Below, in pieces: positions 32,107-38,600 of a DNA stretch of 64,000 bases. This DNA is from Spizellomyces punctatus DAOM BR117 (Eukaryota): the NCBI GenBank assembly GCA_000182565.2, contig KQ257459.1. One strand, given 5' to 3'. The position numbers were made by a program, and so were the translations under genes. The notes under the pieces are model-generated. The model saw only the letters and a list, made by a program, of their open reading frames with translations, was not told the origin of the DNA and made no database searches. Every line of letters begins with the position of its first letter. Position 1 is the stretch's first letter.

Positions 32107-33948
32107 TTATGCTTCATCATAAGCTTCCTTTACACATCTAACCACATGTCCAAAGAATTCGGATATTCCAATGTCTCTAGGGGTATCTAATCCTCGAGAG
32201 TGGCGGCCTTTCATAACTTGGGCGTAAAATTCGTCGACATTCAAGTGTCTAGTGCAACGATTCATCAGTGACGTTTCCATATCCAGCGAACGCTTATGCA
32301 CATACCCATCTTTATTGATGTCAAAGAGATCAAAAATGACATCCACCTGCGTTTTTGTCAAATCCGTCTTGGTCACGGCTTTCACAACCCGATGAAAGTC
32401 CGTGCGATCAAGGCCGCTGGACATGGAATTGTAGAGCTTGTATGCCAGTCCCAGGTCATGCAGACGGGTTCGAATCATTTGGTCAAACTCTAAGGGTGGG
32501 GTAACAGATGAGAACATGGTCCTGACGCAATGGAAAATGTGGGGAAGGGCTGACCATAGAATTGCTGGAATGTCACTCGCTCTTCGTATTTGGGAATATG
32601 CTGCGCCTTCTCCACTAGCTTCTTCAAATGTTGCGGAGAAGCATAGCTGACGATAGACAGCGCAAAATCGGACATGCTGATACTGTCCGTCTGCGCATCA
32701 ACATCGAATTGATGGAACTCGAGTTTCAAGACCTCCAAATGCAGGCGTCGCATGGAAATCTTTAATGTCCAACGTAACAGGTGAGGTTCCTATCCGTTTC
32801 AGATCTCACTTGATGGCACATACCAATAAAAATCATCGTAAACNNNNNNNNNNNNNNNNNNNNNNNNNNNNNNNNNNNNNNNNNNNNNNNNNNNNNNNNN
32901 NNNNNNNNNNNNNNNNNNNNNNNNNNNNNNNNNNNNNNNNNNNNNNNNNNNNNNNNNNNNNNNNNNNNNNNNNNNNNNNNNNNNNNNNNNNNNNNNNNNN
33001 NNNNNNNNNNNNNNNNNNNNNNNNNNNNNNNNNNNNNNNNNNNNNNNNNNNNNNNNNNNNNNNNNNNNNNNNNNNNNNNNNNNNNNNNNNNNNNNNNNNN
33101 NNNNNNNNNNNNNNNNNNNNNNNNNNNNNNNNNNNNNNNNNNNNNNNNNNNNNNNNNNNNNNNNNNNNNNNNNNNNNNNNNNNNNNNNNNNNNNNNNNAA
33201 ACTAATGAGGCCATCTGGGTAGAGTGAAAGGTTAGGTGCCGTTCGCTCCATATCTATCCCGCGTGCTGAACTACCTCCATCAGTGTCAGCTAATGCAAAG
33301 AAAGCCTCTGCAGATGGCACACGTTTTGGATGTGCCTAGAACAGTGCCGCTACTCGTAGGCATGCATTTCACTTCCTTGTAGCCTGCAGCAGACAAAAAC
33401 CTACCGATCCGTAGTAACTTCGGTAGGGTACGAGCGACCGAATAAAATCTTCAGTAGTCATGTGCGGTTCGCCATGCTTTCGCTGAGTGCGGACAGTCAG
33501 CTACATAGAGCTGATATATATTTGACAATGCTGCGGACTCACCACTGATGCAAAGTAGTGGAAGACCTTTAGCGGGTGCGAGAATTTTCGCAAGCGGTTC
33601 TCATATTCCCCAATCCTATCCCGCTTCCAACTGTCATATGACTACATGACACCAAGGTAACTTATCAGAGTCAACCTCGTATGTGAAGTCCCGTCGTGAG
33701 CACGATTGAGCTGTTATTCTTACGTTGGTCTCTTTACCGTCGTCACAAACGACCGGGCTGCTGCTGCTGACGGCCCAAGTACATCCCGCAGCTACTGCTG
33801 TCACACCGAGCACCCATGCGGTTGACCAGCGCCATTGACGTGGTACGGTATGCCCTTGACTATGGCGAATAAATGGTGTCGATTGATAAGACCTGCCCCA
33901 CAAGGTTCGCCATGCATTTGGGCGATTCATGAATACTTGTCGTGCCAT
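32107..33948 (-). CDS. MICU1: Mitochondrial calcium uptake protein MICU (EF-hand gatekeeper of MCU), interrupted by an assembly gap
   Basis: Arg-rich presequence and hydrophobic stretch, RIGEYENRLRKFSHPLKVFHYFAS, MTTEDFIRSL, EF-hands DTDGDGLISF and DINKDGHLNVDE, EVLKLEF, VDVIFDLFD, RHSRGL. Confidence 0.92.
32844..33198. other. Assembly gap (355 N)
   Basis: Run of N inside MICU1. Confidence 0.99.
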
Positions 33949-34152
33949 TTTTCACCGGCTTCGCAGCCGTGCCTTCTTAGCGATACCGTCAGCAAACGTC
34001 CCATGCAATCATAACCCTAAAAACGCCGGCTAACTTACAGTTTGTTGCGTGCAGAGCGGACGGTCGAGGTGAACCAAAGATGCAGCAAGTCTGAAGCGCG
34101 TCGCCGGTGGTTGCTGACTCGCCACTCTTGCAGATCCCTCTCCACCGAAACA

Positions 34153-35500
34153 ATGAATGGACAGCAGAACATGTTACGACTCTTGAGAACGCCAGTGGCA
34201 AAATGCCGTTTCGTACAATGTTCCCGAACGCAGACTAGACGGTTTACAAAGGAATCGCCCGTGGATTTCGATCCTGTCAAGAACCTCCAGCTATCTACAG
34301 CCAGCCTTCCACCTTCACCTCCGTTGAAACAGAAATTTATTTCGCAAAGAATGTCTACAAAGGAGTTGGAGCAAGTAGAAATAGGCATTGGAAACCATAG
34401 AAGACCCGGTAAGTATTTGCCGCATGGTCTGTACTGGGGATGCTCACCGAAAATTGAGCGCAATGCACAAATATCTTTGCAGAACGGTTGAGTGATTGGA
34501 TAGCATTTTGGATGGCAAGTGGGTTGATTCATGGCCCCTTTCTGTGGGGCTTCAGGAGGAGATATATACATCCAGCTGTGAGTGCGTATCGTTAACATGA
34601 TAATGAATGTTCGCAGTCACGAATCAAACCTGACCGTTGTCTTGGATTGTTGAAGCATTTGAGACAATTTCCGGCGTGCCAGGTGACCGTCCGTCATGCT
34701 TACAGAATCCTGCAGGCCTACTGCCTCATCTTCCTATCCGGATTTAGGAATGGTAGGGGGGATGGCTCGGCATTTGAGAAGTTTACGAAAGATGCGTCAC
34801 GACTATGGGTGGATTCACCATCTGTTGGACGAAGCCGAAAATGAACGCACGCATCTGATGATTTGGATGGTACTGCTCAGGCCTTGGCTTGTTGTCTGTT
34901 AATCTCTGTCTAATCCGACTTCATTTTAGCGTGAAACATCACCGAGTTATCTGGAGCGGCTTTCTGTAACCTTCGCCCAAGCCGCATATTTTCTCGCGTA
35001 TGGATTATGCTATGAACTTTTACCTGGGATTGCGCATCGCACCACTGCATACTTGGGCGAAGAGGCTGTATGGCGCTACACGCTGCTTATCAATGACATT
35101 GACCATGGCAAATGCGAAAACAGAAAGGTAGGATGTACCCTCACCATGATAATCGCATTGCAAACGATACTGACGTTCTCTGCAGGCAGGTGACATTGCC
35201 CGAGAGTACTATAACCTTCCGGAGGATGCCACTCTGCGGGATGTGGCAGTCGCAGTGCGAATGGATAAAGGTACGATACGGAGCACCGTTTGCTTAGATT
35301 CTCCCGCGAGTTTTACGTAACTGTTCATTTCAGCATCTCATCGTGACATCAATCATCACTTTGCGGACCGTATTCATGCTGGTTGCGAGAACCTGCACGA
35401 GAATTACAGTCCTCGAAAACATTTCGTAGGACGGAAAGTCATTCCTGTTGGACCCCATGGCATGTCACTTGAAAGGACGGATTTTGTGATGGAACGCTGA
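34153..35500 (+). CDS. AOX: Alternative oxidase-like protein with degenerate active site, about 6 introns
   Basis: [90 protein letters not shown]. Arg-rich presequence; frame open to TGA 35498-35500. Confidence 0.9.
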
Positions 35501-35614
35501 CGTACGCTATATTACACCAAATTTGAACGTTGCGTGAAAGTGCCGAAATATTTTGTAAACTTCAACGTATTGGTAATTTTAATTACAAAATGAATTGGTA
35601 CATCCTCAGATTCC

Positions 35615-38600
35615 TCATCGTCCTCTCAGCAAACAAGCAATCCATATCCAAACACCGACCACCTCTCCTGCATATCCACAACACCAGACCGCACATGCAA
35701 ATTCGCACCATTCGTCCGCACATGCATGGACATCAGTGGCCTGTACGGCCGCGAGAATGTCATTTGTATCCGTATATGGCAAAGATATTGGGCTCCCTTT
35801 CAGCCTATATACGGCACGGAGACGGGATAAGTCCTGTAAACTCGATAAAGAACTGGACACCTGCTCATTGGATGTCTGAGTGCAAACCGCGGTCTCGAGT
35901 GTTGGCAAAGCACTGAATAATGTTCTGGATGCCAATCTGGCAATTAATGGAAGGGAATGTCAGTACATCCCCTACAACAGACTGCTATTCTGTCATTTTG
36001 TTTCGGAATCGGTCCGAATAGAACTCACCGGTTCCATCGTGTGGGCTTATTTCCTCTCCATGTCTCAATCCCCGCTATTATTGCACGCTCCAGACGACCT
36101 TCAATTTCATGGAGTTTCGCAAGGTCGGGAGTCTTGTAGATTGGCTCTTCGAGCTAGTTATCGTGTGTGTGCATATCCATGAGCTCGTGCTTGAAAATCG
36201 CTAAGTCTGCTATGTACTTACCTGCAGACTTGGACCCTCAGGTTTGGGAAACGCTCGGTGGAACAGTGGGCGCCAGCTGCGGTTATCTCGTAAGTTAAAT
36301 GACATTCGCGCTGGATCCGCTTGCTGCTGAATGTTGACCCAAACCTGAATAAGGAATTTTGCATTTAAACATTAATACCTTTCGCACGTTTAGATTCCTT
36401 TGACGTATGCTCACATTATCCTGGTCGAATAATTGTCCTATTTCGATCAGCGGGCAAAGTGCATCTTTCACGGTCCAAACTGTTCCATCCACTGGATCCC
36501 AGAGTTTCCACTCTTTCAAGATAGCCCGTTCGTGCTCTTCCCTGGTCAACACCCACGCGACACGCCCTTTGGCTACATCTCGTCCCAGGACCACCCAAGA
36601 GTCCACATCTTTTAAACACCATTTAAAATAATTACATAAGAGAATGGCATGCTCGGCGGCGCCCCCAGCTCCAAGGGTCATCATTTGCTCGGTAGTAGCC
36701 CAGCATGAGTGAGGGTATATCATTCTGGAAGGGAGATATGGCAGCAAAGTGACATAACGGAGAAGATGAACCGGTGTTGTTGGTAAGCCAGGGGGCGGGG
36801 CTTGCGGCCGTAGAAAACGACTTATAAGAGCTGTTTGTTGGGAGAGGGTGGTCGTCGTTATGCGAATGTGGCGGGATTGAACGTGAGCAGGTAACGTTGA
36901 AGGGAAACTGGAACAATAGCGGAGGAGATGCAGCGATTCGAGGGACTGAACCTTTGGGAAATTGTTAGCGACAGGCGGAACTTGAATGCGAGGAAATTTT
37001 CGCTTGGTCTGACGTAGGTACCTTTGTCTTTACTTCTGTCGGTTGAGCTAATGGTGGATCCAGCGTAATGAACATATAAAGCGAGGTCCCTTTGTTCGGC
37101 TCGATACCCACCGGCACAGCTGCTATAGGCATCGCCAGTGGGGCATGCTCATATCCTATTGACGCGCAAGGCAGTTTGACAGGGAAGTCGCCTGCAAGCT
37201 GTCCAAGGGAATGTAAGTAACTGAAATGAAATGTGATCAAAATTCACCTGAAACTCAGTTGCTTACACGAATCTGTTCGTGTATTGCAGAAAAGGGAATG
37301 GTTAGCGATCCAAGCCAGGTACGGTCTTTTCGACGGTGGATCTGGGTATCTCGGTCTCGTTCCTCCTATTGTGATAACGGGGTAAGCACCTACCGATCGG
37401 ATACCCGGTCACTATCAAAGCACCCACCTGCATTAAATCAACTAGCATTTCATCAAAGAGGTCAAACCGGACTTCCTCAGCATCCAGTTCTCCCTCGACG
37501 CCTGCTTGATCACCACGTGGAGGTGTCACTGGAAGCATTAACGTTTCGTTCCATTGAGGATTCGGGCCTTCCCCAGTTGTCGTGCGCGCGTGGCGATTTT
37601 GAAATGTCAGCTGTACATACGGCCGAACCCACTACCGTAATTGGATACATCATCTTTAGGTTAGTGGGCTAAAATGAATGATTAGCATGTTACCAACACT
37701 TACGACTGGTCCATCAGATTCGGTTTCCACAACATCATGAATGCTCTTTCTGTCCTTTCTGACAGGTATGTTGGAACCCCTCAATATTTGCACCATAAGC
37801 CTACAGCCCTCCGGCTGCAGCCCATTCGTCAGTGCCTCCCTTCTATCCTCCCGATACGGGCGGAGTGGTCTCCGTGGTCTGAACCACTCGGTGAGAAAAA
37901 ATCCTTTTTGTGGTCGGTCTGCGAGTTTCTCTTCACGGACATAATCACTATGCCGCTTAGGCTGTGGATGAATCGTACTGCGAAGCAGTTGGTGGCTACG
38001 TAGACGCTGGAGAAACGTTGTCTCGGGAGTTGATAGATCAGACTGAGCTGTAGGCGCAGAATTCAGAAGGGAGAGCGTAGAAGAATGTCGTGACAGCATT
38101 GGATATAGTTGGGGCTTCTCAAGCGAAACCATTTAGGTTTGTGCTGATTGTGCGAAGTGAATATGCTGGCGTTGTACTTACTGTTTTATCTGAATCTAGC
38201 ATTTCCTGCATCATACCCTCATCGATCTCCTCATCCAATAGCGGTATAGGGCTCAGATGTTCAGCTGTAATATGACCTCTTTTCGTCTCCCTATCTTTGA
38301 TTAAAGTAAACCTCTTCTCATTGAGTTCATTATCGACCTGAAAATTCATGAAATGAGCATGGTATGAGCAATACCGAGAAGTGGTGCGTGATATATACCG
38401 CAACATCTAACGCCATGGCTCGGATCCATGCCGGAATTTCAAGACGGCAAAACTTTTTTGATGACCAGTACTCCATTGCGGAGGTACCCTCTGAGCTCGA
38501 CGATGCCTCTGCCAATCTTTTCAAGCGAAGCGTGTCTTGTGAGCGGGGATCATTCGGATCAACAGGCAGAGATTGAACCCAGTCCTTAATAAATATATGG

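Follow-up and report, generated by a model that had tools for sequence, protein, structure and literature searches.

An alternative-oxidase homologue of Spizellomyces punctatus short of two di-iron ligands is probably not a ubiquinol oxidase

The six-residue di-iron site of alternative oxidase (AOX), a drug and fungicide target, is treated as invariant. The gene SPPG_05947 lies on the + strand of a 64,000-nucleotide stretch of contig KQ257459.1 from Spizellomyces punctatus DAOM BR117 (assembly GCA_000182565.2; the whole stretch is called the window below), and it encodes an intact member of the AOX family in which two of the six ligands and most of the quinol-site residues considered here are replaced. 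The locus raises the question of whether such a protein is still an oxidase, has become the partner of one, has acquired some other role, or is a relic on the way to disappearance. By comparing its residues, relatives, transcripts and predicted fold with those of canonical enzymes, we arrive at the view that on balance SPPG_05947 is most likely no ubiquinol oxidase, and that it belongs to a clade of chytrid proteins that appears to have been maintained with a remodelled active site.

Active-site residues and fold

The gene model consists of seven exons and six introns of 58-74 nt each, all with GT-AG borders. The spliced coding sequence of 954 nt gives a product of 317 aa that agrees letter for letter with the annotated protein P0001 (NCBI 'uncharacterized protein SPPG_05947 [Spizellomyces punctatus DAOM BR117]'), which bears out the first-pass annotation of this DNA, where the gene had been described as open from presequence to stop. 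P0001 is labelled 'Alternative oxidase' in UniRef and has a precomputed assignment to PF01786; the same AOX profile matches exons 4, 5 and 6 with 60, 56.4 and 26.1 bits, respectively (cutoff 22.7), and no Pfam match was obtained for the other three of the six exon pieces tested. Residues 1-33 include eight Lys and Arg and no Asp or Glu, and such a basic N-terminus would fit a mitochondrial presequence.

The di-iron ligands described for the trypanosome alternative oxidase (TAO) are E123, E162, H165, E213, E266 and H269 (PMC9246349), and two of the glutamates are described as bridging and two as bidentate (PMC10955580). TAO numbers were assigned to the chytrid protein by HMMER alignment to PDB 3vv9, with full-length numbering. 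Glu121, Glu160, His163 and His265 occupy the places of E123, E162, H165 and H269, and Tyr218 that of Y220; Gly211 stands at E213 and Lys262 at E266, so that four of the six ligands remain and the canonical set of four Glu and two His is incomplete. These are the same losses and retentions that had been read by eye, and the replaced codons lie exactly where they had first been placed: Gly211 in [13 protein letters not shown], Lys262 in RMDKASH, and Pro116, at the position of R118, in IHPAVTFET. We take E213 to bind one iron of the TAO structure as a terminal ligand, in bidentate fashion, and E266 to be one of its two carboxylate bridges. Since both are lost, one iron position would be left with at most E162 and H269, which makes a canonical di-iron centre very unlikely.

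Replacements of this kind are rare in the family. Glu is present in 255 of 264 aligned AOX homologues at the E213 column and likewise in 255 of 264 at the E266 column, and only ten of the 264, SPPG_05947 included, deviate at any ligand column. The commonest replacement at E266 is Lys, which accounts for three of the five non-Glu residues among the 264 (P0001, its relative P0002 described below, and the separately placed P0222).

The quinol site is affected as well. Functional weight has been attributed to R96, D100, R118, E215 and T219, which serve quinol or inhibitor binding or the path of protons (PMC6213860, PMC6204527, PMC10955580), and the sole survivor among these in SPPG_05947 is E215 (Glu213), T219 being replaced by Arg217. 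The stretch that carries R96 and D100, V-K-x-L-R-x-P-x-D in canonical fungal enzymes, reads A-S-G-L-I-H-G-P-F with one extra residue. Its register moves by one residue between alignments, which leaves unaffected the absence of any Arg or Asp across residues 97-109 in the family alignments; the upstream LR...D, reported as missing at first sight, is indeed gone. In the second sphere, N159, D261 and Y242 correspond to N161, D265 and Y246 of TAO and are kept along with Tyr218. TAO W247 is replaced by Tyr, a residue also found in the canonical relative P0003, and the substitutions L122F and A126S adjoin the metal site. The loss of E213 and E266 together with that of R118, T219 and D100 (and of R96 in Spizellomyces) is the reason why we regard the protein as most likely not a ubiquinol oxidase.

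The overall fold is predicted to have been retained. An AlphaFold2 model computed from an 88-row alignment has a mean predicted local distance difference test (pLDDT) score of 81.6 and a predicted template-modelling score of 0.75. Local scores mostly exceed 90 in the helical core, lie at 75-78 in the remodelled alpha-1 segment (residues 101-120) and are low in the tail past residue 290. In a Foldseek search of the PDB with this model, ranks 1-10 are all TAO chains (E 3e-13 to 2e-12, target template-modelling (TM) score 0.71-0.74), followed by bacterioferritins with E of about 1. The model thus supports the four-helix-bundle AOX fold for SPPG_05947. Homodimer predictions computed without the alignment scored 0.18 and 0.13, against a mark of 0.32, and speak neither for nor against a homodimer.

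Relatives, maintenance and expression

Of 7997 candidates scored in a word-indexed search with P0001, 3545 proteins reached E <= 0.001, and the best 120 were inspected; an exhaustive HMMER search of cluster representatives returned 1747 proteins. The closest relative among the matches listed is P0002 of Borealophlyctis nickersoniae (Rhizophlyctidales), with 51% identity across 278 aa; the aligned span takes in the N-terminal arm and also a C-terminal tail that is absent from other AOX. This orthologue has Lys at E266 (in the context 'DKASH'), Pro at R118, Ser at A126 and Ile at V125, and its residues at E213, T219 and D100 are Asn, Gly and Tyr, respectively. Common to both proteins are R118P, V125I, A126S, E266K, a non-Glu residue at E213 and the tail pattern VG..GP.G..ER.D. 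The fragment P0223 (170 aa), which is 67% identical to P0001 over residues 69-168 and ends ahead of the E213 region, carries the three clade-derived changes that it spans, R118P, V125I and A126S; in its R96/D100 stretch Val-Lys takes the place of the canonical Leu-Arg and the Asp is gone. The search for the same substitutions in related chytrids, proposed when the gene was first annotated, was in this way rewarded by E266K and R118P in Borealophlyctis, with Asn at E213.

In a maximum-likelihood tree of 44 rows, hand-picked from ~325 fetched proteins, these sequences form the group (Borealophlyctis, (Spizellomyces, P0223)) with support of 100/99 and a stem of 0.94, and their tips measure 1.38-1.59 against a median of 0.47 (~3x). 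The group adjoins canonical P0003 and the AOX of Cladochytriales (support 93/88) and is placed inside chytrid AOX. Taken together, the alignments and the tree indicate that a ligand-deficient AOX clade in Spizellomycetales and Rhizophlyctidales is old, fast-evolving and maintained.

Several other sequences came up in the same comparisons. P0232 aligns into the C-terminal tail and was rejected as a clade member, as it has canonical E213 and E266 and its tail similarity is weak. A metagenome scan with P0001 gave 44 pattern matches, and the one locus confirmed by tblastn (L001) proved to be a chance match of a 9-residue word with stops in frame. In the environmental protein P0125 just one of the six ligands survives (columns QQLGQH), and Gly stands at E213; with respect to the chytrid clade the free tree gave it no resolved position, and by the approximately unbiased test its membership is neither rejected nor established (p 0.26). 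P0125 and the canonical-looking P0007 (ENA) each list a longest contig of 6229 bp and might be neighbours on one contig. Single ligand losses are found in the nearly identical P0098 and P0109 of Selaginella moellendorffii (Arg at E213) and in P0216 of Vitrella brassicaformis (Asn at E213). The environmental P0222 (ENA) combines Lys at the E266 column with Ala at H269 on a long basal branch far from the chytrid clade, which suggests that its Glu-to-Lys change is of independent origin. Ligand loss in Selaginella, Vitrella, P0222 and P0125 implies that such loss recurs in the AOX family. In P0121 of the sea anemone Actinostola sp. (363 aa) the AOX core is matched in two stretches, which gives the entry the appearance of a partial duplication within the protein or of a wrongly joined gene model.

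The pattern of change within the clade is uneven. Across 82 canonical sequences, 86 columns show conservation of 85% or more; the conserved residue is present at 66 of them in P0001 and at 71 in P0002. Literature sources were used to assign twenty conserved positions to the ligand set, the vicinity of the metal, the second sphere or the quinol site; nine of these 20 are changed in P0001, compared with 10 of 65 elsewhere (one-sided Fisher p 0.009), and nine of 20 in P0002, compared with 6 of 65 elsewhere (one-sided Fisher p 0.0009). Drift was simulated by random point substitutions in the coding sequence, with indels excluded and 500 replicates, and the frame stayed open in 31/500 at 85% identity to the start, in 1/500 at 71% and in 0/500 at 51%. 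Since open frames nearly never survive simulated drift, two intact orthologues at 51% identity are not expected to be neutral relics. These results are indirect and argue for maintenance with targeted change at the active site.

Evidence for expression comes from one raw-read RNA run (X6) under the same species label, from which ~6 in 100 reads were sampled; run X7 placed none. On the strand of SPPG_05947 there are 197 reads with a strong 3' bias, the depth being 24-30 over 35388-35511. A 63-nt GT..AG joint in three reads corresponds exactly to intron 6, and these reads span codon 262; three reads have loose letters after 35132 that match exon 6 from 35191, which we read as splicing of intron 5; and a loose run of A's past 35610 in three reads marks the poly(A) end. 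The gene is transcribed, spliced and polyadenylated. Confirmation by RNA-seq had been called for in the first-pass annotation, and no base differences are listed in the RNA reads over SPPG_05947.

Possible roles of the protein

The picture that we favour is that of an AOX-derived, nuclear-encoded and probably mitochondrially targeted protein, the active site of which would have been specifically remodelled in this clade by replacement of E266 with Lys and of E213 with Gly or Asn. A canonical di-iron centre would then be unable to assemble, and the protein would not act as a ubiquinol:O2 oxidoreductase. The ammonium group of Lys262 could take up the emptied metal position as a counter-charge to the buried Glu121 and Glu160 and so give a stable metal-poor bundle, and a non-oxidase role at the inner membrane, be it structural, regulatory or binding, may have followed. 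The ancestral enzyme would in that case have been replaced, and not partnered, by its ligand-deficient descendant. Among the possibilities raised at first annotation, a non-catalytic or re-purposed AOX remains the best reading of what the alignments suggest, namely an intact AOX homologue that has no canonical six-ligand site and has lost its quinol-site residues.

What suggests replacement is that neither species yielded a canonical AOX in the searches made here. In the window, tblastn with canonical AOX detected none. The best 120 matches to P0001 hold no S. punctatus or Borealophlyctis protein besides P0001 and P0002, and the best 120 matches to canonical P0003 likewise hold no further protein of either, both searches covering annotated proteins only. 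With P0003 as query, the matches did include canonical AOX of Batrachochytrium, Cladochytrium, Polyrhizophydium, Entophlyctis, Nowakowskiella, Gonapodya and others at 56-72% identity.

Several points weigh against this picture. Four ligands are kept together with Tyr220, N161, D265 and Y246, which is more than a purely structural protein predicts and may point to chemistry that is either residual or new. That Lys262 occupies the metal position is itself conjectural. An unannotated or fragmented canonical AOX may exist in S. punctatus, as the searches beyond the window covered annotated proteins. The list of active-site positions behind the Fisher tests was drawn up during the analysis and was not pre-registered. 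Finally, the RNA depth at the Gly211 codon is just 0.19, and the bins from 34644 to 34953 have no reads.

The rival that survives best, which we hold to be unlikely, is that the protein still works as an oxidase, or as some other redox enzyme, with its centre re-engineered. Such a centre might be a mononuclear or hetero-metal site on E121/E160/H163 and possibly H265, a di-metal site with a bridge formed by carbamylated Lys262, or a metal-independent cofactor at Tyr218. In urease and phosphotriesterase it is a carbamylated Lys that bridges the metals. Favourable to a redox enzyme are the retention of the four ligands and of the second-sphere residues in both orthologues, the fact that Glu-to-Lys is the change that they have in common as well as the commonest one in the E266 column, and the apparent status of the protein as sole AOX homologue in S. 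punctatus and Borealophlyctis (best 120 matches, annotated proteins). A precedent for the tyrosine cofactor is described in class Ie ribonucleotide reductase R2e, where QSK or VPK, each ending in Lys, stands in place of three metal-binding glutamates and the protein works with a dihydroxyphenylalanine (DOPA) radical (PMC11846895). On the other hand, R118, T219 and D100 of the quinol site are gone too, the orthologues differ at E213 (G/N) and at T219 (R/G) in a way that resembles relaxation more than a precise new site, and an activating partner like NrdI is not known.

A bolder version, to which we give only a slim chance, is that the clade has re-invented a ferritin-like site without the second iron. 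In O2- or radical-dependent chemistry, Glu121, Glu160, His163, His265 and Tyr218 would be joined by Lys262, whether as the free residue, on the model of metal-free class Ie ribonucleotide reductase, or in carbamylated form, as a bridging ligand that depends on CO2; all this would take place in the sole 'alternative oxidase' of these fungi. If true, the re-invented site would be a mechanism so far unknown for any AOX.

It is improbable that SPPG_05947 acts in the manner of a prozyme, as the regulatory and itself non-catalytic half of a heterodimer with canonical AOX. We take the universally conserved residues of the TAO dimer interface to be H138, L142, R143, R163, L166 and Q187, a list left unconfirmed by the review searched, and the counterparts of all six are kept in the chytrid protein. 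A regulatory role has also been proposed for the trypanosomatid AOX-L (bioRxiv 10.64898/2026.09.27.754813). A partner of this kind did not appear: canonical AOX of S. punctatus or Borealophlyctis is in neither of the best-120 listings, though those of many other chytrids are, and there is none in the window. Since the best 120 matches of the two protein searches hold no canonical AOX of either species, the heterodimer-partner role is unlikely, and this part of the earlier proposal is weakened even as its wider idea of a re-purposed protein stands.

A pseudogene in decay in which a stop codon has yet to appear, the remaining suggestion of the first-pass annotation, is very improbable. Long branches, ~3x the median tip, and the loss of catalytic residues would be expected of it. 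Against it stand a spliced and polyadenylated transcript with GT-AG at all six introns, an intact orthologue of another order with the same derived residues in a clade supported at 100/99, the 66 of 86 conserved columns kept in P0001, and the near-complete loss of open frames under simulated drift at the two lower identities.

That the two codons reflect an artefact of sequencing, assembly or annotation can practically be dismissed: the low RNA depth at codon 211, the origin of the two contig sets from one sample, possibly the assembly's own source, and a gap of 354 N ~950 bp upstream would allow for one, but the contigs, which stem from two further runs of this organism, have 0 differences over 34122-35388, the RNA reads have none either, three of them crossing codon 262, the orthologue independently has Lys at E266 and a non-Glu residue at E213, and, as had been pointed out from the sequence directly, a change from GAR to GGC requires two base changes.

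The locus and comparison with known systems

The features of the locus are collected in Table 1. A search for an alternative exon that would restore the Glu residues, by tblastn of canonical AOX against the window, matched the same exons only.

Table 1. Features of the SPPG_05947 locus (positions in the window)
Feature	Position	Strand	Remarks
AOX-family gene SPPG_05947, start to stop codon	34153-35500	+	317 aa; gene model, identity to P0001, PF01786
Exon 1: putative basic presequence and N-terminal arm	34153-34408	+	residues 36-85 align with Borealophlyctis orthologue
Exon 2: remodelled helix alpha-1	34483-34581	+	residues 97-109 (34515-34553) without TAO R96/D100 counterparts; Pro116 (CCA 34572-74) at R118
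Exon 3: FETISGVPG motif	34656-34682	+	Glu121 (GAG 34661-63) = TAO E123, kept; L122 to Phe, A126 to Ser
Exon 4: first ExxH motif NERTH	34748-34869	+	Glu160 (34843-45) = E162 and His163 (34852-54) = H165, both kept
Exon 5: [10 protein letters not shown]	34930-35127	+	Gly211 (GGC 35056-58) at E213; Arg217 (35074-76) at T219; Tyr218 (35077-79) = Y220, kept
Intron 5, 58 nt	35128-35185	+	splicing inferred from loose RNA read ends
Exon 6, last residues RMDK	35186-35270	+	Lys262 (AAA 35267-69) at ligand E266; RNA reads spliced 35270/35334
Intron 6, 63 nt, GT..AG	35271-35333	+	splice joint observed in RNA, 3 reads with 3 starts
Exon 7: ASHRDINHH	35334-35500	+	His265 (35339-41) = H269, kept; stop TGA 35498-35500
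Clade-specific C-terminal tail, residues 279-317	35381-35497	+	aligns with Borealophlyctis; low pLDDT
3' untranslated region	35501-35610	+	poly(A) addition near 35610

Downstream lies a convergent gene (35551-37029, - strand) with matches to the CEP76 peptidase-like and CEP76 C-terminal domains (open reading frames (ORFs) 36295-37029 and 35615-35959). Its transcript has a poly(A) end at ~35551 and the AOX transcript ends at ~35610, so that the 3' ends overlap by ~60 nt. Upstream, an ORF at 32107-32697 (- strand) matches the EF-hand pair PF13833 with E 4e-7. The scaffold gap of 354 N occupies 32845-33198 and leaves the AOX gene untouched; spurious long ORFs in every frame and what looks like a dip in GC content are due to it.

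With respect to canonical AOX (PF01786, TAO 3vv9 and fungal AOX), the chytrid protein has 35-54% identity to the fungal enzymes, E 2e-40 to TAO, a predicted fold that matches TAO with a TM of ~0.74, a basic putative presequence, and E123, E162, H165, H269, Y220, N161 and D265, and it is nested in chytrid AOX. It differs in the absence of E213 (Gly), E266 (Lys), R118 (Pro), T219 (Arg), R96 and D100, and also in L122F, A126S, the extra alpha-1 residue, the clade-specific C-terminal tail and a tip branch ~3x the median.

Conserved ligand-deficient relatives of AOX have hitherto been discussed mainly in trypanosomatids, and SPPG_05947 provides what appears to be an independent fungal case. The trypanosomatid AOX-L (AOX2 or TAO-like) is described as having no E123, E162, E213, Y220 and H269, and as judged inactive yet maintained in a lineage separate from AOX (10.64898/2026.09.27.754813). 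Going by this description, on which the comparison is based, both are conserved AOX-fold proteins short of catalytic and quinol-binding residues. The chytrid protein loses only E213 and E266 among the ligands and keeps Y220, so that E213 is the sole loss common to the two; its clade branches inside fungal AOX, and no canonical AOX is seen beside it. SPPG_05947 has neither the set of losses nor the separate lineage that define membership of AOX-L.

In plants, wheat 'AOX-like' isoforms and grass AOX1d variants are described that have no R96 and T219 or that carry R118H, possibly with altered function (PMC6213860). They resemble the chytrid protein as AOX relatives with loss of quinol-site residues, and they differ from it as paralogues found beside functional AOX genes; the passages of that source that describe them mention no loss of di-iron ligands. 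The chytrid clade probably arose independently of both AOX-L and the wheat AOX-like isoforms. The literature searched contains no account of SPPG_05947 or its clade; supplements, which lay outside the search, may list more ligand-deficient AOX.

A more distant likeness is to class Ie ribonucleotide reductase R2e (QSK/VPK), a ferritin-like four-helix di-metal protein in which metal-binding glutamates have given way to other residues, a Lys among them, and an adjacent Tyr is kept (PMC11846895). It belongs to another family, has three carboxylates replaced as compared with two, and needs NrdI and a DOPA radical, so that the parallel is an analogy only.

The chytrid case spans two orders, is expressed, and involves the loss of two ligands with one of them changed to Lys, which makes it a clean test of the AOX fold without its iron pair; S. 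punctatus, moreover, is genetically tractable. It also means that 'AOX present' in a domain annotation may not imply cyanide-resistant respiration. Compared with the ligand-deficient AOX-fold proteins known so far, what would be new in this clade is the milder loss, the change from Glu to Lys, the origin inside fungal AOX and the apparent absence of a canonical partner.

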